Notes: generated from the sequence alone by a model not told the origin. Shown: positions 4,182 through 15,914, numbered from the stretch's first letter. The stretch is DNA of 64,000 bases from Saprospiraceae bacterium (GCA_027488855.1 JAIYAV010000217.1:9197-73196), one strand, 5' to 3'. A program made the numbers and translations.

Positions 4182-4898
4182 ATGATCATACCGACCTTGC
4201 AAGGTACCATCGATCGCAGAATCCTCATCAATTTCCAGGTTGAGCAGGAAGTTCTGAACAATTTTTTGCCCAAACCCTTCAAGGCGAAATTGGTCAATGG
4301 GAAAGGAATGGCGGGCATTTGTTTGATCCGACTAAAGGAAATCCGGCTCAAAGGTTTTCCGAAACAATTGGGAATAGCTTCAGAAAATGGTGCCCATCGC
4401 ATTGCGGTGGAATGGATTGAAAATGGGGTTCAAAAAGAGGGTGTCTACATCCCTCGTAGAGACACTTCATCCAAATTAAATGCTTTTGCCGGCGGAACCT
4501 TGTTTCCAGGAGTCCACCATTTGGCACAATTCGTAGTCAATGAATCGGCTGGAGCTTACGAAGTAGCCTTCAAAAGCGACGATGACACTACTCTATCGAT
4601 CAAAGCCCAAGAAACCCAAACCTGGCCTGCAGATAGTATTTTTGAGAACCTCTCTTGCGCTTCCGCCTTTTTTCAAAATGGCGCCTTGGGTTACTCGCCC
4701 GGCGGCAGTAATTTCCAGGGGATTGAGCTCAAAACCAATGACTGGAAGGTTCATCAATTAGCAGTGGTAGATGTTCAATCTAGTTTTTTTGAAAACGAAA
4801 AAGTTTTCCCCAAAGGTTCCGTAAAATTTGACAATGCCTTATTGATGAAAAACATTGAACACGAGTGGGTTGGACTAAAATCGATCGCTAAATCCTGA
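4182..4898 (+). CDS. Conserved hypothetical protein, possibly DUF2071 / acetoacetate-decarboxylase-like fold
   Basis: 238-aa ORF 8 nt after the upstream stop. The N-terminal pattern 'RILINFQV..EVL..FLP.PF.A.LVNGKGMAGICLIRL' resembles DUF2071. The family call is tentative. Confidence 0.4.
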   Translation: MIIPTLQGTIDRRILINFQVEQEVLNNFLPKPFKAKLVNGKGMAGICLIRLKEIRLKGFPKQLGIASENGAHRIAVEWIENGVQKEGVYIPRRDTSSKLNAFAGGTLFPGVHHLAQFVVNESAGAYEVAFKSDDDTTLSIKAQETQTWPADSIFENLSCASAFFQNGALGYSPGGSNFQGIELKTNDWKVHQLAVVDVQSSFFENEKVFPKGSVKFDNALLMKNIEHEWVGLKSIAKS

Positions 4899-5003
4899 TT
4901 GTCTCCTTATCTTAGACATAGCTAAAGTTTCCCCAAAAGGTGATTTATTTCCTTTTTGCTAGTATTTTGGCCTAAAGTTTCCTCAACAAATCAACCCATT
5001 GCC

Positions 5004-5261
5004 ATGGCCGCTAAAAAAATTGAAGAACAAACTACCGCCGAGTTGCGAAAATTGGCGAAGACGTACAAAATAATCACAGGTGTATACCTTGGAGCCTTCA
5101 TTGTATACATCGCAGCAATGCTTTATTCCGTCTCTACAGGTAAAGTAAGTACTGTACTGGTCGTGGTCATGGTGGCACTCATTACTACTTCGTTGCCCGT
5201 GAATATGATGCGGGCTAAGGTTAGTGCTGAATTGAAGCGGCGGGAGGAAGCGGCGGGATGA
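5004..5261 (+). CDS. Small membrane protein (two predicted TM helices)
   Basis: ATG at 5004 within ORF 4956..5261. The hydrophobic stretches 'ITGVYLGAFIVYIAAMLY' and 'VLVVVMVALITTSLPV' are flanked by charged ends. It is the last gene before the AT-rich island. Confidence 0.45.
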   Translation: MAAKKIEEQTTAELRKLAKTYKIITGVYLGAFIVYIAAMLYSVSTGKVSTVLVVVMVALITTSLPVNMMRAKVSAELKRREEAAG

Positions 5262-5392
5262 TGGTTGTAAAAAGGCAACTATCATTATGGCTACGGAACT
5301 CAGATAATTCTATAGCTATATCATTGGGTATATCTGCCTAAATGAAATTAATAAAAATAATTATTCATACAAGAAAAGACAAAATATTGCTC

Positions 5393-6580
5393 ATGGCGAA
5401 GTTCTTATCTTCATTTGCGTTCAAAAAATGTAAGCATCCTAATTATGAGTATATTTATCAAATTAACGCTTCATCGCTATTTCCAGATATAAATTTATTG
5501 GGAAAGCAGGTCACAGTCGCAGGATTGTCCATTAAACGATGCCTTGACTGTGGTACATTCCATTGGACAGAAGGCAATGAAGAACTAAAGCCCATTGTTC
5601 AAGAACAAATTATGTCTTTTTTAAAAGCATCTGATGATTTTTTAGATCAATCCTTGATATTTGGTGATTTTAAAAAGGCAAATCTACAGGTTATTGAACC
5701 GCCCACATCTTTTAAAAAGGTACTAGCAGAGGAAGCTGTCTTTACAATAAGCTCAACCAATATAAATCTTGTCGATGTAATTCTTCCTCACAATACAGAA
5801 CAAGGAATAAAACAGATATTCGCAAGTATCAAATATCAACATATAGTGAATGATGAATGGGGGTTCAACAAAGTAGATCCTGTAGGAACTGGAACAGTAA
5901 TATTGTTTTATGGACCATCAGGAACTGGAAAAACCCGATCAGCAGGAGCTATCGCCAATGAATTAGACATGCCCATGATTTCTGTCTCGCTAAAAGATTT
6001 GGAAAGTAGATTCATGGGGCAAACCCCAAAAAACATCGCTAAAGCTTTTGAGGAGGCAAACAAACAAAATGCTGTACTGTTTTTTGATGAAGCTGATACC
6101 GTTCTAGGAAAAAGGTTATCTTCAGTAACTACGGGAGTGGATAACGAAATAAATATGGAACGTTCAACTCTGCTCAAAGAACTTGAAGCGTTCTCAGGCA
6201 TTTGTATTTTCGCAACAAATTTTCAAGAGAATATAGATACCGCATTTCAAAGAAGAATTAATTATCACGTTTCATTTGAATTGCCTGATCCAATCACTCG
6301 AAAACGACTTTTAAGTTATTTCCTTATCGATAGCATTCCTCTTTTAGAGACAAAAGAGCATATTACTGATCAGATTGTGGAAGAAACTTCTGAATTTAGC
6401 GGAGGGGATATTGTACAGGCACTTCGACAAGGTTTCATTATTGCTTTAATGGAAAACCCCACTACCCCAAAGGTCAGTTTAGCCCATTTTATTGAAGGCA
6501 TAGCCAACTTAAAAAAAATAAAGCAAGCAATTGCTCAAAGAATGACTCAAACTATTTTTAACATCAAAAACAAACAATAA
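5393..6580 (+). CDS. Classic-clade AAA+ ATPase with a ~170-aa N-terminal Cys/His-containing domain (island gene 1)
   Basis: Walker A 'GPSGTGKT' (nt 5912-5935), Walker B 'VLFFDEAD', second region of homology 'FATNFQENIDTAFQRRI', and lid 'LPDPITRKRLL...FSGGDIVQA'. The N-terminal region has C-x-H ... C-x2-C-x3-H. An alternative start lies at 5342. Confidence 0.85.
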   Translation: MAKFLSSFAFKKCKHPNYEYIYQINASSLFPDINLLGKQVTVAGLSIKRCLDCGTFHWTEGNEELKPIVQEQIMSFLKASDDFLDQSLIFGDFKKANLQVIEPPTSFKKVLAEEAVFTISSTNINLVDVILPHNTEQGIKQIFASIKYQHIVNDEWGFNKVDPVGTGTVILFYGPSGTGKTRSAGAIANELDMPMISVSLKDLESRFMGQTPKNIAKAFEEANKQNAVLFFDEADTVLGKRLSSVTTGVDNEINMERSTLLKELEAFSGICIFATNFQENIDTAFQRRINYHVSFELPDPITRKRLLSYFLIDSIPLLETKEHITDQIVEETSEFSGGDIVQALRQGFIIALMENPTTPKVSLAHFIEGIANLKKIKQAIAQRMTQTIFNIKNKQ

Positions 6581-7590
6581 TGAGTTTAATGAACTGGATT
6601 AGACAAATAGCCATAAAAGTTAGAGATGTCGTTGTCTCAGCAGTTGTTGCAGCTTATGAAATAGGCAAAAAGGTTGTACATTATGTAAAGGAAGCAGTAA
6701 GGGCGGTTGTTGATTTTGGTGCCGAGTTGATAGAAAGATTTCTTAAAAAATTGGAAAAATTTGATATTTCCATACGTGTAGGAAATATTGAAATATCCTT
6801 CAAAGATAAAGGAATCCATGTGAATTCCTTCCAAATAGGGCTAATTGAAAAAATCTTAGAAACTATCAAGCTATTGGAAAGTGTAGAGACTTCAGAAATT
6901 TCTACAATTGAAGATTATTCAAGGATTAAAGTTTCAAGACAATTCTTGATGAAAATGATGCAGAAAACAGCCAGAGAGCTTGAAAGTATGAATGATACTG
7001 ATAAAGAATTTCTTGATTATGTTTACCAATTTTTAAAAGGCGAAATGGATTCACATTCATTGGAAGCTTTTGAAAAAAGTGTATTTGAAAGATATGGGAG
7101 AACCCTTCTTGAATTTGGCCTTGAGAAGATAAATAATTATTGGAAAAAACGTTACAGGAATATTGACCAGCGCATCGATATGTTGAGCACAGAACTCCGA
7201 AGAATAAAGCAAGAGTTCAGGGCTATAAATACCCTAATCAAAGCTGGTGCAGAAATTGAAGATCAAGACCTAGCTCGATTGGAACAACTTAAAACAGAAA
7301 TACCACAAAAAGAACAAGAAAAAGTAAAGCAAGAAGCGCATCTTGCTAAAACATATAAAATAACTTCCGTGATGGCCGGTTTATTAAAAATGGCAGATCG
7401 AGAGAGTAATATTCCTGATCATTTACGTACTTATTTTAAACCAGTTGCAGATATTATGGTGCGTTGGCAACAAAATGAAAATTTGAGCCTTGAAGAAGAA
7501 AACCTTCTTGATAATTTTGCTCAACTTTACTGGAACAGCAACGAAAATTTAAATTCGTTTGAAGAAGATGAACCTTTAGAATTTCATTAA
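6580..7590 (+). CDS. Hypothetical coiled-coil protein (island gene 2), translationally coupled to the AAA+ gene
   Basis: The start ATG (6580-6582) overlaps the upstream TAA (6578-6580) by 1 nt. The 336-aa product has an amphipathic N-terminus and a K/E/L-rich helical composition. I recognise no family. Confidence 0.7.
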   Translation: MSLMNWIRQIAIKVRDVVVSAVVAAYEIGKKVVHYVKEAVRAVVDFGAELIERFLKKLEKFDISIRVGNIEISFKDKGIHVNSFQIGLIEKILETIKLLESVETSEISTIEDYSRIKVSRQFLMKMMQKTARELESMNDTDKEFLDYVYQFLKGEMDSHSLEAFEKSVFERYGRTLLEFGLEKINNYWKKRYRNIDQRIDMLSTELRRIKQEFRAINTLIKAGAEIEDQDLARLEQLKTEIPQKEQEKVKQEAHLAKTYKITSVMAGLLKMADRESNIPDHLRTYFKPVADIMVRWQQNENLSLEEENLLDNFAQLYWNSNENLNSFEEDEPLEFH

Positions 7591-7613
7591 ACAACCATTA
7601 AAAATCTTAGGAT

Positions 7614-9005
7614 ATGAATAAGGTAAGTGCAATTGGCTATCTTATACCGAAAACGTCTTTTGAGTATCTTTTTTTTATTTTACCGCTGGTTTTATTTTTA
7701 ATAGGGTACTCTTATCGGTCTAAATTAGGTATTCTTTGGGAGCAAAAATTCAAAAATATTGGTCTAAAAAGCCGTGTATTAGGCATTATAAGTAGCCAAG
7801 AAATCATTGAAGCGACTACCCCGTCCCAGCAAAAATTTATCTATTCCCTCCCTGGTATGTTTTTAATAATCGGTCTTTTAGGGACTTTCTGGGGCCTTGG
7901 ACTGGGAATGGTAAAGATGGATGCAGCAATTAATTCAAGCGGAGAAGACATGATGTATAATTTAAAATCATCGCTGGCTGATCTAAGTGTTCAATTTAAA
8001 TCAAGTATTTGGGGGATATTATTCAATTTATTGACAAAAGTATTTTTTGGGAATATTCCCCAAATGCATCATGCATATATATTGCTTAAGCTAGACAAAC
8101 TAGCAGATGAAAAAGAGAGGCTTGAAAACGCTCACAAGGCTGGTCTTTTGGAAAAACTGTCCAATAACAATGCTCATTTACAAGAAGTAATAACAAATGG
8201 CTCTCTAAGTGTTCAACAAATTAAGGAACTCAATTCAAAGTATCAAAGTACAGTGGACGCCATAAATAATTTTAAAGAAGAGAATTCAGAAATTACTTTA
8301 AAGTTAAAAATCGCTGCGGAAGAGTTTACAGAAGGAGCAAAAAGCATGAACACCAGCATTGAATCCTATAAAGATGAAATGTCAATTGCATTTGGTAAAA
8401 TTGGTAGAATTATTTCAGACATTAAAGGGTTCATCGAAGCATCAAGATCTGCAATTGACACAAGTGTCCAAGCGTTAAAGGATGAGATAAAATTATCATT
8501 AAGCGATTTTTCAACAAGCATTTCTGGCACCTTAGGACAAGTTTCTCAAAGTTTAATGATTGCAACTGGGAGTATAGAAAGAGCTATTGAAGATTCTATG
8601 AAAATGGTCGGAGAAACATCTAAGACTAGCTCAGAATCTATTGAGATCGCAACATCCAGCTTAAAAGATCAAGTTGGAACCTTATCAAGCGAGCTTTCAC
8701 GTAACTTAGCTGAAGTAACCAGAATATTAAATGCATCACAAAAGCAAATGGACAGTCAAACAAGAATTCATGCAGAAGTAGCTTCATGGTTGGGCGGGTT
8801 AAACGAGAGCACAAATCGATATTATGACGACCTCGAAAAATTGCGGACGATAATCACCACTATGTCTAACGAAAAGGCCAATTTAATTGGAAACATGGCT
8901 TCGTTATTAGGCGCAACTGGAATAGTTTCAACTAGACTAGGCGAAATGGTTGAGGAACAAAAGAATTTAAATAGAATTTTATCCGACAAAAAAGATAATG
9001 AATAA
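7614..9005 (+). CDS. MotA/TolQ/ExbB-family channel-like membrane protein with a ~310-aa helical C-terminal tail (ZorA-like; island gene 3)
   Basis: Three N-terminal hydrophobic segments (aa ~17-34, 75-100, 128-146). 'LPGMFLIIGLLGTFWGLGLGM' resembles the MotA/ExbB 'GLLGTV.G' signature. The rest is a long S/T/E/K/I-rich predicted helix. The gene starts 23 nt after gene 2. Confidence 0.65.
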   Translation: MNKVSAIGYLIPKTSFEYLFFILPLVLFLIGYSYRSKLGILWEQKFKNIGLKSRVLGIISSQEIIEATTPSQQKFIYSLPGMFLIIGLLGTFWGLGLGMVKMDAAINSSGEDMMYNLKSSLADLSVQFKSSIWGILFNLLTKVFFGNIPQMHHAYILLKLDKLADEKERLENAHKAGLLEKLSNNNAHLQEVITNGSLSVQQIKELNSKYQSTVDAINNFKEENSEITLKLKIAAEEFTEGAKSMNTSIESYKDEMSIAFGKIGRIISDIKGFIEASRSAIDTSVQALKDEIKLSLSDFSTSISGTLGQVSQSLMIATGSIERAIEDSMKMVGETSKTSSESIEIATSSLKDQVGTLSSELSRNLAEVTRILNASQKQMDSQTRIHAEVASWLGGLNESTNRYYDDLEKLRTIITTMSNEKANLIGNMASLLGATGIVSTRLGEMVEEQKNLNRILSDKKDNE

Positions 9006-9011
9006 GCAGTT

Positions 9012-9617
9012 ATGGAAGATAATAACGAATGGATTTCCGTTGGTGACTTAATGGCAGGGGCAGTAGCAGTTGTAGCTATGATGTTTGCCATTACTTTGTT
9101 GCAAAACAAATTTAGCAATTTGTCATTTGACCCAACTGAGAGGAAAGAGCTAACCACATTTTTAAAAGATTTTTCCACCGAAATACAAGGAAGCCCTGGT
9201 CTAAGTGTAAACATTGAGCAGTTTAAGCTACACTTAGATGGTGAAGGATTTAACTCAGGGAGGTCATGCCTTTTATGGGGTGTATCAAATGCTTTGGAAA
9301 ATCTAAATAATAAATTAAGCGAGTTTATGCTTAATCACCGAGGTATAATCATTATAATTGAAGGGCATTCAGACACAACACCTATAAACGACGAAGTTAA
9401 GGATGATTGTAGGTGTAAAAAGCCATGCAAAAGTAACATAGAACTTTCCCTTGCTCGTGCTTTAGTGGCAAGAGATATTATCACAAATAACTGGAATACG
9501 TCAATGAAAGAACGTGTTCTAGTTCACGGTTATGGCTTCCATCACTATGATAAGAGTAAGTCTATGTCTGAAAATCGACGGGTGGAAATTTCATTTAATT
9601 TTTCACGAGTAAAATAG
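9012..9617 (+). CDS. MotB/OmpA-like peptidoglycan-binding membrane protein (ZorB-like; island gene 4)
   Basis: An N-terminal Asp precedes a single TM helix ('WISVGDLMAGAVAVVAMMFAITLL'). The C-terminal OmpA_C-like motifs are 'IIIIIEGHSDTTP', 'NIELSLARALVARD' and 'NRRVEISF'. The gene starts 6 nt after the MotA-like gene. Confidence 0.75.
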   Translation: MEDNNEWISVGDLMAGAVAVVAMMFAITLLQNKFSNLSFDPTERKELTTFLKDFSTEIQGSPGLSVNIEQFKLHLDGEGFNSGRSCLLWGVSNALENLNNKLSEFMLNHRGIIIIIEGHSDTTPINDEVKDDCRCKKPCKSNIELSLARALVARDIITNNWNTSMKERVLVHGYGFHHYDKSKSMSENRRVEISFNFSRVK

Positions 9618-9880
9618 CAGAATGACAAGAGGCGAAAGTCTGCTTCACCATTTGAGTCCAGATTTTAGCTGCAAGATGGCAAACACGTTTCGTCATACGC
9701 TATAATGATTTCACATTTCTCTCTAATAACAAAGAGTAACAGCCAAAAATTAACTCTAATCACCTTACAAAAAGGTATTACTGAAAATAAGTACAGTATT
9801 TTTTTGTTACTTAATGCCAAATGGGTTAACTTTACCTATCTTAAATATTATTGTTACAACCTATATCAAATCACTGGTAA

Positions 9881-10966
9881 ATGATAAATTTTGCTTTCTC
9901 AAGGTTCAATAGGATAATAATCCATAGAGTACACCAAAAACAACGAGCTGATGACCACTCATTTGTAGAGCATGAAGATCAACTAGTCATCGCAGATTCA
10001 GAAGCCCAAGACATTATAAAACGTCGTGTAACCGATGCGTGTGGTCGGCAGTCCAGATCTTTTAAACTTCAAATCTCGCAAGTTGAAAATGGCTCTTTTT
10101 TTAGTTTAGCCAAAGATATATTTAGTTTAAATGATCAAGATTTTATAACTAGAAGTAAAGAGGTTGCATCACTTTTAGGTAGTGCTCAAAAAAGGGCTAA
10201 TATTCCAGGTGGTGTTCTGATTGTCATTGATGGTGTAACAGATGATAATCTGAATTTCATTTTAGTTGTAAAAGCGGAATTGCAGGAAGCCTTCAAGACA
10301 AGTTTAGATTCATCTACTAATCAACGGCAAATTGAGGTCTTGAAAGAGATTTTTCTTTCTCCCGCTGAAAAGTTCTTTAAAATTGGTTTGCTTAGGCAGG
10401 CAATAAACGAAAATGAAACCTACCCAAATAACGATTTTTCTTCCATGATTTATGATGACCAATTTAGACCAGGTGGAGAACCTGCCGAGTTTTTTTACAA
10501 AGATTTTTTAGGCTTTAGTATCGATAAAAATGAAAAAATACTTACGAAAAGCTTCTTTGAGGACACAAAGAATATTATCCTAAGCCATGCGGAATCCCCT
10601 GAAGTAAAAAGAGATTGTTTGTCTGCATTGCGAACACTTTATAAGCAGGACCAAACTGGAATAATTGATCCTATCGATTTCGGGGCCCGCTATCTGCCAG
10701 ATGGAATAAAGGGACAGTATTCGGCAAATGTTTTGAGCCATCCGAAATACAATCGACCATTTACCAAAGATTTAGCTCTTATGGGCCGAGAATTGACGAA
10801 ACGAATAATGTCATTTCGTAACAAAGTTAACGTGACAGCCCCTGAAGAGCTATTTGATGAAAATGTAACTGTAATAAGAACAATTGAGGAAGCTACTGAA
10901 GCATTGAGTGAGAATGAATTATTCACTTTACTCAAAATAAAAGGCATACCCTACGACAATGATTGA
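9881..10966 (+). CDS. NA37/YejK (NdpA)-like nucleoid-associated protein
   Basis: 'FSRFNRIIIHRVHQK' N-terminus, 'ANIPGGVLIVIDGV...NFILVVKAEL', 'KFFKIGLL' and 'FFYKDFLGFSI' match landmarks of the 37-kDa nucleoid-associated protein family. The ~360 aa size fits. Confidence 0.6.
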   Translation: MINFAFSRFNRIIIHRVHQKQRADDHSFVEHEDQLVIADSEAQDIIKRRVTDACGRQSRSFKLQISQVENGSFFSLAKDIFSLNDQDFITRSKEVASLLGSAQKRANIPGGVLIVIDGVTDDNLNFILVVKAELQEAFKTSLDSSTNQRQIEVLKEIFLSPAEKFFKIGLLRQAINENETYPNNDFSSMIYDDQFRPGGEPAEFFYKDFLGFSIDKNEKILTKSFFEDTKNIILSHAESPEVKRDCLSALRTLYKQDQTGIIDPIDFGARYLPDGIKGQYSANVLSHPKYNRPFTKDLALMGRELTKRIMSFRNKVNVTAPEELFDENVTVIRTIEEATEALSENELFTLLKIKGIPYDND

Positions 10967-11963
10967 TTTCCGGACTAAAGAGGAGGATCTCATTTCAGAG
11001 TATAGCGCTTTGAAGCCACTGCTTATTAGTTGGGGCGAGTTTGTCGATAAAACAATTCTCCAAATATTAAGCGATAATGGCTTTGATCTGTCAAGATTGC
11101 AAATATATCCTAAACATAGAATAAAAACTGATAATTCATTAATCAGACGAGCTTTTTATAGAGACATTGAAAGTTCATCTGATCCATTAAGAAAAATAGA
11201 AGACAAGTTAGGAACGAGATTAGTTGTTACAACTTTAGATGATGTAATGAAAATTCGTGAGATAATCACAGAACACGATGTTTTTTGGAAATCTAGAGAA
11301 AGTAGAGGGGTTGATAAGCACCTTTCCAAACCTAAGGAGTTTGATTACCAATCATTACATCTTAACTTAACTCCAAATAATTCAGTAATTGGTTTTGAAA
11401 AAAAACCTAAATCTGAACGAGAGCGTTATATTTGTGAATTACAAGTGAGAACTTTACTCCAACATGCTTTTGCTCAAGTCGCTCACGATACTATTTACAA
11501 AGGGGTTTTTGGCTCAGATAGCCAGTTAGTAAGAATTTTAAGTAGGGGAGCTGCATTAATGGAAGTCACTGATGAACATTTTTGTCAAGCTTATAAAATC
11601 ATGGAGAGAGAAAAAACTTATGAAAAAAACTATGTAAAACAACTCATCACATTATCAAAAGAAAGACTTGACTTTGAATTCCAAGCAAAGCAAGTTGATA
11701 CTGTGTTGACAGATGAATTATTTCAGATTTTTGATGCAAAAAACATTGATATCGCAGAGGTGGAGCGCACTATAATAACTAATAAAGATTTAATAATCAA
11801 CACCTTAAACAAAATAGACTCTTACATGAAAACGCAACCCGTTTTGCTTTTTGTTATTCATTTAATTTTTTCAAATGCGTACAAAATTAAAAACAGTTGG
11901 CACCTTGAAGAGGACATTTTGAAGGATCTTTTCTTTAAATTAGGCTTTTCATACCTGCGTTAA
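10959..11963 (+). CDS. Stand-alone RelA/SpoT-domain nucleotidyltransferase (small alarmone synthetase / toxSAS-like) with a ~120-aa C-terminal extension
   Basis: Synthetase motifs 'HRIKTDNSLIRR', 'KLGTRLVVTTLDDV', 'FDYQSLHLNL' and 'ELQVRTLLQHAFAQVAHDTIYK'. There is no HD, TGS or ACT domain. The ATG at 10959 overlaps the upstream TGA (10964-10966) by 8 nt. Confidence 0.85.
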   Translation: MIDFRTKEEDLISEYSALKPLLISWGEFVDKTILQILSDNGFDLSRLQIYPKHRIKTDNSLIRRAFYRDIESSSDPLRKIEDKLGTRLVVTTLDDVMKIREIITEHDVFWKSRESRGVDKHLSKPKEFDYQSLHLNLTPNNSVIGFEKKPKSERERYICELQVRTLLQHAFAQVAHDTIYKGVFGSDSQLVRILSRGAALMEVTDEHFCQAYKIMEREKTYEKNYVKQLITLSKERLDFEFQAKQVDTVLTDELFQIFDAKNIDIAEVERTIITNKDLIINTLNKIDSYMKTQPVLLFVIHLIFSNAYKIKNSWHLEEDILKDLFFKLGFSYLR

Positions 11964-12013
11964 CCGTTTAATCTCATTAAAAATTTGGCTACGCAGGCGA
12001 TGATCCATCAACA

Positions 12014-12625
12014 ATGGCAAGACTTACTTTTAATCTTGCCAAAATAAATCACCAAAACATGTCTCTGAATAACAATTGGAATCGAGATATTTTGGCTAAA
12101 GCTTGGCACTTTGCAACTATTAAACATAGTGGGCAAACCTATGGAGGGCGTATCCCTGATCAATACATAGAATACATAAATCATCTGAGCAGTGTTGCAA
12201 TGGAATCAATGTGGGTTTTAGCTAACTCAAATGATGACTATAATGCAGACCTTTTGCTCCAATGCGCTCTTTTGCATGATACTCTAGAAGATACACCAAC
12301 CGAATATCACGAATTATTAGTAACGTTTGGGCCAGATGTTGCTAATGGTGTACAGTCCTTGACAAAAAATAAAACGCTTATCAACGACCAAGACCAAATG
12401 CTCGACAGCCTTCAACGCATCCAAGCCCAACCCAAAGAAATCTGGATGGTCAAAATGGCCGACCGCATCACCAACCTGTACCACCCACCTTATTATTGGG
12501 ACAAAACCAAAATCGCCGCTTATCGCAGCGAAGGCCAGGTTATTTACGATCATCTGGCCCCAGCCGATGCGCTCATGGCCCAGCGTTTGGCCGATAAAAT
12601 TGAAGCCTACCAACAATTTTTGTAA
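12014..12625 (+). CDS. HD-domain (p)ppGpp-hydrolase-like protein (small alarmone hydrolase, SAH/Mesh1-like)
   Basis: 'AWHFATIKHSGQTYGG..P..YIEYINHL', 'ALLHDTLEDTPT', 'FGPDVANGVQSLTK' and 'KMADRITNL' match the SpoT/Mesh1 HD hydrolase fold at single-domain size. An alternative start lies at 12059. Confidence 0.8.
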   Translation: MARLTFNLAKINHQNMSLNNNWNRDILAKAWHFATIKHSGQTYGGRIPDQYIEYINHLSSVAMESMWVLANSNDDYNADLLLQCALLHDTLEDTPTEYHELLVTFGPDVANGVQSLTKNKTLINDQDQMLDSLQRIQAQPKEIWMVKMADRITNLYHPPYYWDKTKIAAYRSEGQVIYDHLAPADALMAQRLADKIEAYQQFL

Positions 12626-14867: not shown

Positions 14868-15914
14868 ATGCAAACTAGAAGAAATTTTTTGAGGTGGTCA
14901 GCACTGGGCCTACCTTTCGTCTCATTTAGCCAAACCCTGGCCAAAAGTAAAGTATCAGCCGCCACAAAGCCAATCGTCGTGTCGACCTGGGACAGCGGAC
15001 TGCCCGTCAATGCGGTAGCCTGGAAAGTTTTGCGCGAGCAAAACGGTCGCGCCCTTGATGCGGTAGAAGCTGGGGCACGCTCTATCGAAGACAGCATCAA
15101 TTGCTGCGTAGGCTTGGGCGGCAACCCCGACCGCGACGGGATCGTCACCCTCGATGCTTGCATCATGGATGAAAAAGCCAATTGTGGGTCAGTGGCTGGC
15201 TTGTCTTACATCAAACACCCCATTTCCGTAGCGCGTAAATTGATGGAAACCACTCCCCACGTGATGCTAGTGGGTGAAGGGGCACTGCACTTTGCCTTGG
15301 CCAATGGCTTTCCCAAGGAGTCGGGAAAATTGTCGAAAGATGCCGAAAAGGCCTACAAAGCCTGGCTAAAAAAATCGGAATACAAACCGGTCATCAACAT
15401 AGAACAGCAACAAATCAACGCCAAGAAGAACAAGGGAAATGGCCCATTTGCGCCCAACAGATTCGAAGATGGCAGCCCCAACCACGATACCATGGGCACC
15501 ATTGCCATGGACGCCGCTGGAAACCTTTCGGGTGCTTGTACCACCAGTGGGATGGCCTTCAAGCTCCATGGCCGGGTCGGTGACTCACCGATTATTGGTG
15601 CAGGTTTGTTTGTAGACAATGAAGTGGGTGCTGTAACTGGCTCAGGACAAGGGGAAGAGGTGATCCGCGTAGCGGGTGCAGCCCTGATCGTGGAAATGAT
15701 GCGAATGGGTAAATCACCCAAAGAGGCTTGTAAAATCGCGATTGAAAGAATTGTAAAAATCAACCCGGAAAAGGCTAAAACCTTCCAGGTTGGTTTCATC
15801 GCCATCAATAAAGCGGGTGAATACGGTGCTTATTCGATTCAACCTGGCTTCAGCTATTCGGTGACGATGGCTGAAGATGGAGGGAAGGTGTATATGGCGG
15901 AGAGTCAGCTATGA
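14868..15914 (+). CDS. N4-(beta-N-acetylglucosaminyl)-L-asparaginase (glycosylasparaginase, Ntn hydrolase)
   Basis: Twin-arginine-like leader 'MQTRRNFLRWSALG'. Autoprocessing/nucleophile region 'HDTMGTIAMD', then 'HGRVGDSPIIGAGLFVDN...GAVTGSGQGEE'. Confidence 0.85.
   Translation: MQTRRNFLRWSALGLPFVSFSQTLAKSKVSAATKPIVVSTWDSGLPVNAVAWKVLREQNGRALDAVEAGARSIEDSINCCVGLGGNPDRDGIVTLDACIMDEKANCGSVAGLSYIKHPISVARKLMETTPHVMLVGEGALHFALANGFPKESGKLSKDAEKAYKAWLKKSEYKPVINIEQQQINAKKNKGNGPFAPNRFEDGSPNHDTMGTIAMDAAGNLSGACTTSGMAFKLHGRVGDSPIIGAGLFVDNEVGAVTGSGQGEEVIRVAGAALIVEMMRMGKSPKEACKIAIERIVKINPEKAKTFQVGFIAINKAGEYGAYSIQPGFSYSVTMAEDGGKVYMAESQL

Follow-up and report, generated by a model that had tools for sequence, protein, structure and literature searches.

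Few immune systems are believed to detect infection at the cell envelope by means of a rotary motor, and Zorya is one of them. Three types are distinguished by the genes that accompany the ZorA/ZorB pair, namely, ZorC together with ZorD in type I (ZorABCD), ZorE in type II (ZorABE), and ZorF and ZorG in type III (ZorABFG, in which ZorF is DUF3348 and ZorG is DUF2894). Analysis of a 64,000-nucleotide (nt) stretch of a Saprospiraceae bacterium genome (GCA_027488855.1, JAIYAV010000217.1:9197-73196; referred to as the window, with positions counted from its first letter) centered on four consecutive plus-strand open reading frames (ORFs) between positions 5342 and 9617. An earlier reading of the DNA, termed here the original prediction, had described these ORFs as a ZorA/ZorB-like stator pair coupled to an AAA+ ATPase and a coiled-coil protein. 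The ORF listing reproduced the coordinates given there: ORF1 (5342 to 6580; longest ORF, 412 amino acids [aa]), ORF2 (6580 to 7590; longest ORF, 336 aa; referred to as protein X), ORF3 (7614 to 9005; 463 aa; ZorA-like), and ORF4 (9012 to 9617; 201 aa; ZorB-like). As judged by homology, the four genes appear to represent a Zorya-like system, rare but broadly distributed and mobile, whose effector module differs from those already described, and they are probably a new type of phage defense system.

Among the defense and solved-structure libraries, ORF3 and ORF4 matched only ZorA and ZorB. The ZorA-like subunit predicted from ORF3 (7614 to 9005, plus strand) contains three transmembrane (TM) segments, as originally proposed, at approximately residues 13 to 34, 79 to 100, and 126 to 146. 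The first two of these were found by a hydropathy scan, in which the second extended over residues ∼75 to 102, whereas the third, although conserved, fell just under the threshold. The helical tail of about 310 aa that had been described was borne out, with 313 residues following TM3, none of them proline, a composition of helical type, and weak Pfam matches of coiled-coil type. The proposed MotA/TolQ/ExbB signature held as a channel motif (PGxxLIIGLLGTFxGLG) but not as a family match, the Pfam MotA_ExbB model being unmatched at E < 0.1. Similarity to ZorA was detected with the PADLOC ZorA1 model (E = 3.7e-10), with the NCBIfam ZorA_2 model (E = 3.4e-8, below the cutoff), and in the PDB, where ORF3 matched ZorA chain 8vvn_C (E = 1.3e-5) and four Escherichia coli ZorA constructs, the best of which was 8qyh. 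The N-terminal family profile (160 residues) retrieved only ZorA chains from the PDB (E = 1.9e-6), and the family profile aligned with canonical type I ZorA over TM2 and TM3 (hhalign probability, 94.6%; E = 6.4e-8). Two channel residues were invariant in the family, T91 (nt 7884 to 7886), which lies in the channel motif, and S131 (nt 8004 to 8006), which lies in the motif FKsSxWGI. These residues align with Thr147 and Ser184, which serve in E. coli ZorA as the ion filter, or ion-selectivity residues (PMC11946911).

Relatives of ORF3 were recovered by an exhaustive HMMER search of 1.84 billion representative proteins, which returned 274 sequences at E ≤ 1e-3. Most of these were 400 to 700 aa in length and carried the channel motif in the same N-terminal position. 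Across the ZorA-like family, total lengths ranged from 380 to 790 aa, and tails were often shorter than the canonical tail. When ORF3 and ORF2 were used as queries in word-indexed searches, essentially nothing but the window's own proteins was returned.

The ORF4 gene starts 6 nt after ORF3 and is predicted to encode the ZorB-like subunit (9012 to 9617, plus strand), comprising an N-terminal TM segment (residues 7 to 32), a periplasmic linker, and a predicted OmpA-like peptidoglycan-binding domain (residues ∼101 to 193, nt 9312 to 9590) with the motifs EGHSD, LSLARA, and NRRVE. The TM-proximal aspartate and the OmpA/MotB-type domain that had been read from the sequence were both recovered. The aspartate, Asp12 (nt 9045 to 9047; motif I-S-D-L-M-A-G), is family invariant, and both Asp12 and the OmpA-type motifs were unchanged in at least 20 ORF4 homologues. 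The PADLOC ZorB1 model matched ORF4 over its full length (residues 2 to 198, E = 1.1e-13), and a BLASTP comparison with canonical ZorB (E = 3e-5) aligned the TM aspartate. The match to Pfam OmpA (E = 1.4e-5, 25.7 bits) was just below the gathering cutoff of 27.2, and weak NCBIfam MotB matches were confined to the OmpA-like domain.

The locus resembles Zorya in several respects. A three-TM subunit of the MotA/ExbB superfamily with a long helical tail is encoded immediately before a subunit with one TM segment, its aspartate, and an OmpA-like domain; the TM2 threonine, TM3 serine, and TM aspartate are all kept in ORF3 and ORF4; and the pair is operonic with genes for soluble partners and has a mobile, patchy distribution. 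It differs from Zorya in that the pair is joined by an AAA+ ATPase and X, both encoded upstream of it, and in that the ZorA-like subunit lacks ∼55 N-terminal and loop residues (channel motif at residue 80 versus ∼135), has a shorter tail than E. coli ZorA, and is accompanied by no nuclease. The lack of a nuclease makes a DNA-targeting end point, like that of types I and II, unlikely. ORF1 and ORF2 matched none of the models for the Zorya accessory proteins ZorC, ZorD, ZorE, ZorF, and ZorG and none of the PDC models. When ORF1, ORF2, and the three genes that lie downstream were scanned with PADLOC and Pfam, no ZorC, ZorD, ZorE, ZorF, ZorG, DUF3348, or DUF2894 was detected. The partner models performed as expected on a positive control, the genuine ZorC (450 bits) and ZorD (1,352 bits) of Alishewanella jeotgali described below.

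The proposed ZorA/ZorB core was therefore upheld by the profile comparisons, in which ZorA and ZorB were the sole matches, but the similarity is remote, a point that the original prediction had missed. All of the computational comparisons on which that prediction was to stand or fall (profile matches of ORF3 and ORF4, co-conservation of the four genes, and correspondence of ORF1 or ORF2 to named Zorya accessories) were run, and none went against a Zorya-like reading. The literature searched (not exhaustively, so that an unindexed account is possible) contained three Zorya types up to 2026 and no AAA+-linked ZorAB-like system. A fourth Zorya type, ZorH, ZorI, or ZorJ proteins, ZorAB-like modules, and a combination of IetA with ZorAB were likewise not encountered there. 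PADLOC v2 and NCBIfam release 20 contained no model for X and none naming this four-gene system. ARMADA II was considered as a name for the system and was rejected, as that name is DISARM related.

Conservation of the four-gene set was assessed in 185,579 species genomes with the ZorA-like N terminus (trimmed N-terminal alignment) as the only bait, and 33 loci were retrieved. ORF1 homologues (38 to 52% identity) lay 1.3 to 2.4 kb upstream in 28 of the 33 loci, ZorB-like homologues of ORF4 lay downstream in 30, and a member of the X family, encoded by a gene of 345 to 447 aa between the AAA+ and ZorA-like genes, was present in at least 26. The gene order AAA+-X-ZorA-like-ZorB-like was invariant, and X overlapped the start of the ZorA-like gene by 1 to 4 nt in most loci. 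In a reverse search via X homologues, all four genes were found in order in each of six distinct contexts. Homologues of all four, in the same order, were found in more than 25 genomes from several phyla, as the proposal of a co-occurring set had implied. Flanking genes were not conserved among the loci, save for an upstream WYL regulator in Proteobacteria. These comparisons indicate that the four genes form a single conserved module that moves horizontally. Its hosts included Bacteroidota, Alpha-, Beta-, and Gammaproteobacteria, Fibrobacterota, and one metagenome-assembled genome (MAG) fragment of Bacillota. The four window proteins were singletons at 90% identity among ∼15 billion proteins, and an X homologue was found in 1 of 72,556 plasmid records.

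Two further observations concern the distribution of the cassette (individual loci are designated by L and a number). A MAG assigned to the archaeal family Methanomethylophilaceae (L009) carried the cassette with flanks collinear with those of a Hallerella MAG of the Fibrobacterota (L014), and this archaeal copy is probably a misbinned bacterial contig. ZorAB-like pairs without the AAA+ and X genes were also present, in L010 (19 to 9795), L016 (4408 to 9877), L017 (4857 to 9862), and L023. A Bacteroidia MAG of this kind contained two tandem ZorAB-like pairs, with partners of 1,113 aa and 719 aa. In Psychrobacter, three genes, of 235, 477 (or 332), and 432 (or 428) aa, came before a ZorAB-like pair. 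It seems that more than one partner set can be joined to the ZorAB-like sensor, and that there are several such sets.

ORF1 was annotated as a classical-clade, IetA-like AAA+ ATPase (5393 to 6580, plus strand; 395-aa form on record, with an alternative start at 5342 giving 412 aa). The earlier identification of a classic AAA+ ATPase was correct, with a Pfam AAA (PF00004) match of 5.3e-26 (92 bits; cutoff, 21.2) and all of the quoted motifs present, including the Walker A lysine at the position originally assigned to it. In 412-aa numbering, these motifs comprise Walker A K197 (nt 5930 to 5932; GPxGTGKT), pore-loop F224 (nt 6011 to 6013), Walker B D249/E250 (nt 6086 to 6091; LFFDEAD), sensor-1 N293, and Arg304/305. 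The two Walker motifs, the aromatic pore loop (K/R-F-M-G), the sensor-1 ATN, and the arginine (sRI) of the second region of homology (SRH) were conserved in 24 members of the ORF1 family. The Cys/His N-domain that had been described, a putative zinc site at C30/H32...C67xxC70, is present in the window protein but is lineage specific rather than family wide: Bacteroidota, including the window, have C-x-H...CxxC, Fibrobacter members have two CxxC motifs, and Proteobacteria have none.

The closest named family to ORF1 was the defense ATPase IetA, in a PADLOC match (1.2e-35) that covered the AAA+ module only; this resemblance had escaped the original prediction. The top NCBIfam match was IteA_antiphage, at 110.9 bits versus an equivalog cutoff of 510; because this score is far under the cutoff, ORF1 is, by sequence comparison, IetA-like and not IetA. 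The best PDB matches were to the D2 module of VCP/Cdc48 (2.5e-36). ORF1 shares with Cdc48/p97 D2, Vps4/CdvC, PAN, and FtsH the AAA+ motifs, aromatic pore loop (F-M-G), sensor-1, and SRH arginine, but it is a single module with no protease, MIT, or Cdc48-N domain, and it has a lineage-specific N-domain and a unique context. Classical AAA+ proteins with these motifs are substrate-threading hexamers. Since Walker A and B, the sensor, the arginine, and the aromatic pore loop are intact, ORF1 is presumably a hexameric, substrate-threading protein unfoldase or remodeler.

Protein X, encoded by ORF2 (6589 to 7590, plus strand; alternative start, 6580), is predicted to be an all-alpha member of an uncharacterized family. 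An AlphaFold2 (AF2) model (predicted local distance difference test score [pLDDT], 74.8; predicted template modeling score [pTM], 0.67) contained an all-alpha bundle, a small beta-hairpin, and a disordered N terminus. The layout consists of an amphipathic N terminus (residues ∼1 to 45), the beta-hairpin (∼59 to 71), and a helical bundle (80 to 320) with two 46-residue helices. The label of coiled-coil protein originally given to ORF2 was not sustained, as the protein is modeled as a helical bundle with a small beta-hairpin and an amphipathic N terminus, not as a plain coiled coil. The N-terminal 50 to 60 residues were consistently amphipathic across the X family, and most members start with M-G-F/W-W/F. 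Membership of ORF2 in this family was supported by a hidden Markov model lacking the window sequence (7.2e-34), also when the Bacteroidota members were removed (1.7e-19). X matched no family in Pfam, PADLOC, or NCBIfam, the X-family profile found no relatives among PDB sequences, and Foldseek comparisons of the X model with the PDB and BFVD returned nothing below an E value of 0.1. A 441-aa Haemophilus homologue (AF2 pLDDT, 66.2) likewise had no Foldseek match below 0.1. The best nonsignificant fold matches of X included the alpha-pore-forming toxin AhlC (Foldseek E = 0.4). A separate reading of X as ESCRT-III/PspA-like, in which a long helical hairpin would be paired with a Vps4-like ATPase, had no supporting match and was dropped.

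The genomic context across copies points to mobility and defense. In E. coli, the cassette occurred in 1 of 5,426 complete genomes, where it adjoined a tyrosine integrase, insertion sequence (IS) elements, CP4-57-type genes, and a type I restriction-modification system. This copy is located in NZ_LR536430.1 (1802308 to 1807162). The only labels that the Prokaryotic Genome Annotation Pipeline gives its proteins (WP_250192549.1, WP_134393444.1, WP_134393445.1, and WP_134393446.1) are "ATP-binding protein," two instances of "hypothetical protein," and "OmpA/MotB family protein." Neighbors of the L035 copy included an integrase, IS elements, and TIR, STAND, and PIN/MazE genes, and in L025 a type I restriction R subunit gene lay directly upstream of the cassette. 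In Alishewanella jeotgali (L031, 1349 to 15238), the cassette directly preceded a canonical type I Zorya system with ZorA and ZorB scores of 755 and 339 bits alongside the ZorC and ZorD scores given above, and a 395-aa reverse-strand gene was inserted between X and the ZorA-like gene. By homology, two paralogous ZorAB-type systems are side by side in this genome. The cassette interrupted a type II secretion gene cluster in L037, and further copies were found on an 85-kb IMG/VR contig and in an unverified phage record.

In Proteobacteria, the gene directly upstream of the AAA+ gene, in the same orientation, often encoded a WYL(+WCX/HTH) regulator, as in L012 (4454 to 5356), L018 (780 to 1682), L026 (4659 to 5666), L035 (8150 to 9061), L039 (3360 to 4271), L040 (7834 to 8727), and L041 (7770 to 8981). 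The regulator and cassette form a de facto five-gene unit in these bacteria; the window copy has no WYL regulator.

From these comparisons, we infer with moderate confidence that the four genes would constitute a Zorya-type defense module against phages or mobile elements; the details of the mechanism set out next are held with much less confidence. The solved ZorAB complex is a 5:2 proton-driven motor (PMC11946911, PMC11890865), and by homology ORF3 and ORF4 would form a 5:2 proton-driven motor in the inner membrane. The OmpA-like domain of ORF4 would anchor this motor to peptidoglycan and the ORF4 TM aspartate would supply the essential aspartate. ORF3 would give the Thr/Ser channel residues, with its helical tail of ∼310 residues projecting into the cytoplasm. 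Perturbation of the envelope at infection would engage the motor. In type I Zorya, motor rotation and the tail are needed for recruitment of ZorC and ZorD to the infection site (PMC11946911); in the window system, the rotating tail would recruit or activate the X/AAA+ module. This module would act on protein, either unfolding or extracting a phage or host target or freeing X as a membrane-active effector. The absence of a nuclease is the reason for placing the end point at protein remodeling or a membrane effect and not at DNA cleavage, and the effector step as a whole is conjecture.

Put more specifically, the set may be a fourth, protein-targeting branch of Zorya in which the motor signal passes through the tail and a cotranslated adaptor, X, to an AAA+ unfoldase instead of a nuclease; this we advance only tentatively. 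Within such a branch, the outcome could possibly be ATP-driven unfolding or extraction at the entry site, or else AAA+-controlled release of X, a refinement that is held just as loosely. To our knowledge, no precedent has been described for a direct functional link between a hexameric AAA+ ring and a 5:2 rotary motor.

Several findings weigh against a Zorya-type defense function. The four genes contain no nuclease, protease, or recognizable toxin domain. The similarity to Zorya is remote, with scores of 37 bits for ORF3 and 49 bits for ORF4 versus 755 and 339 bits for canonical ZorA and ZorB, and the match of ORF3 to ZorA is below NCBIfam cutoffs. The Pfam MotA_ExbB match that ORF3 lacks (E < 0.1) was found in 2 of 35 family members. 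In addition, many of the genes flanking the cassette in the 33 loci are housekeeping genes.

The alternative that survives best, which we nevertheless consider improbable, is an IetAS-like addiction or abortive-infection module. IetAS was first described as a plasmid-stabilizing toxin-antitoxin pair in which the IetA ATPase is the antitoxin to the IetS protease (PMC13069673). By analogy, X would be a latent toxin, for instance a helical protein that acts on membranes, the AAA+ protein its antitoxin or chaperone, and the ZorAB-like pair a trigger or membrane platform, and stabilization of the mobile element, instead of immunity, could be the primary role. Because IetA acts as an antitoxin to IetS, the AAA+ protein may restrain X until triggered. 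ORF1 is indeed nearest to IetA, with which it shares a single classical AAA+ module and a variable N-terminal region, but at 110.9 bits versus the cutoff of 510 and with X and a ZorAB-like pair, not a protease, as partners. No IetS-type peptidase domain was detected in the window genes scanned (4182 to 5261 and 5342 to 12625), and none was conserved in the 33 loci. The amphipathic N terminus of X and its nonsignificant fold match to AhlC (E = 0.4) would suit a toxin, yet no toxin fold was detectable in X. Integrases and IS elements accompany the cassette, as they might an addiction module, but the single X homologue among the 72,556 plasmid records argues otherwise. An addiction module would also leave unexplained the invariable attachment of a peptidoglycan-anchored motor.

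A nonimmune envelope machine is judged unlikely. It would be a stator-like complex driven by the proton motive force that powers or senses an envelope process, for example, repair, secretion, or surface remodeling, with the AAA+ protein and X as assembly or turnover factors. The 5:2 motor family has many nonimmune roles (MotAB, TolQR, ExbBD, GldLM, and AglRQS), but the closest solved relatives of ORF3 are ZorA only and not MotA, ExbB, or TolQ. Many neighbors in the 33 loci have housekeeping functions and the cassette contains no nuclease, both of which accord with such a role. The flanks, however, are not conserved, several copies adjoin integrase, IS, and restriction-modification genes, and the window copy is part of an island of atypical GC content. 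The L037 copy lies within a type II secretion cluster, but it interrupts that cluster and is not part of it in other genomes. The patchy distribution (1 of 5,426 E. coli genomes, and window proteins that are singletons at 90% identity) and the resemblance of the upstream WYL regulators to those beside defense systems also argue against an envelope machine.

It is very improbable that the locus merely juxtaposes two unrelated orphan pairs of genes, one for AAA+ and X and the other ZorAB-like. ZorAB-like genes do occur without the AAA+ and X genes in L010, L016, L017, and L023, but this account is effectively refuted by the co-conservation described above, in which the AAA+ gene accompanied the ZorA-like bait in 28 of 33 loci, the ZorAB-like genes accompanied X in 6 of 6, and the gene order was fixed, with X overlapping the ZorA-like gene by 1 to 4 nt in most loci.

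A flagellar stator (MotAB/PomAB) or Tol/Exb energizer, both of which had been set aside in the original prediction, is scarcely credible, since the general architecture of three TM segments plus one TM segment with an aspartate, the predicted ion-driven 5:2 complex, the OmpA-like anchor in common with MotB, and the weak MotB matches limited to that domain are outweighed by the lack of any match of the ORF3 sequence or family profile to MotA, PomA, ExbB, or TolQ in the PDB or to Pfam MotA_ExbB, by the three TM segments and long tail of ORF3 (MotA, by contrast, contains four TM segments and lacks a long tail), by the absence of flagellar, TolA/Pal, or TonB genes among the window ORFs examined, and by DUF5686 and CarbopepD_reg neighbors in the window that point to Bacteroidota, which we take to be nonflagellate as a rule.

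The Zorya-like gene set is tightly packed. A TAATG at 6578 to 6582 and gaps of 23 nt and 6 nt between the subsequent ORFs were present as described. The 1-nt overlap at TAATG, however, is doubtful as the true ORF1/ORF2 junction. Public gene calls place the start of ORF1 at 5393 (M18; 395 aa) and that of ORF2 at 6589 (M4; 333 aa), and because these calls and the family alignments back the later starts, the overlap is probably not a real junction. No terminator-like site was found on the plus strand between 5342 and 9617, which fits a single transcription unit. The presumed promoter region is the upstream intergenic sequence (5262 to 5392, plus strand), in which no element was identified; a sigma-70 scan was uninformative (25 sites versus 27.3 expected). 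The AT-rich island claimed for the operon is real according to the GC profile (0.30 to 0.40 across ∼5300 to 12200 versus 0.45 to 0.52 on either side), and it spans two or three further genes downstream. No tRNA genes were found in the window, and no convincing direct repeats were found flanking the island.

Other genes of the window were noted in and around the island. Directly upstream of the operon, at the island edge, a 101-aa protein with two predicted TM segments is encoded at 4956 to 5261; it belongs to no family and is without a counterpart in related loci. Downstream, an NdpA/NA37-like gene (9881 to 10966) shares an 8-nt overlap with a RelA/SpoT-type nucleotidyltransferase gene (10959 to 11963), the latter matching the candidate defense model PADLOC PDC-S33 (9.8e-12). 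These two genes lie inside the island, and the HD_4 SpoT-hydrolase-like gene that follows (12014 to 12625) straddles its edge. The region from 9881 to 12625 may encode an alarmone synthetase toxin with its hydrolase or another defense module. At the start of the window, a gene cut by the window boundary (10 to 1557) encodes the C-terminal portion of an ATPase resembling ClpB (AAA_2 plus ClpB_D2-small) and, beyond it, an extension of ∼330 aa to which no family was assigned.

Neighboring genes in other loci were also recorded. In two Spirosomaceae, Fibrella (L002, 640 to 5477) and Larkinella (L008, 739 to 5575), the same three genes precede the cassette, encoding a GTPase of dynamin/AIG1-like type (410 aa), a 772-aa protein with WG repeats, and a 388-aa protein with a phage lysozyme domain, and these may form a module linked with the cassette. 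In L035, a 77-aa ORF (15211 to 15444) ∼1.7 kb downstream of the cassette has a precomputed match to PF28082, "ZorA-like_t1." The Pfam copy scanned here predates PF28082, and newer Pfam versions seem to include ZorA-like models.

A Zorya-like system of this composition would mean that the ZorAB-type sensor is a portable module serving chemically different outputs, with nuclease partners swapped for an AAA+ ATPase and X. Its ZorA-like (463 aa) and ZorB-like (201 aa) subunits would offer a compact second system for tail-to-effector signaling, and for annotation it would add an architecture that is missed by current tools.

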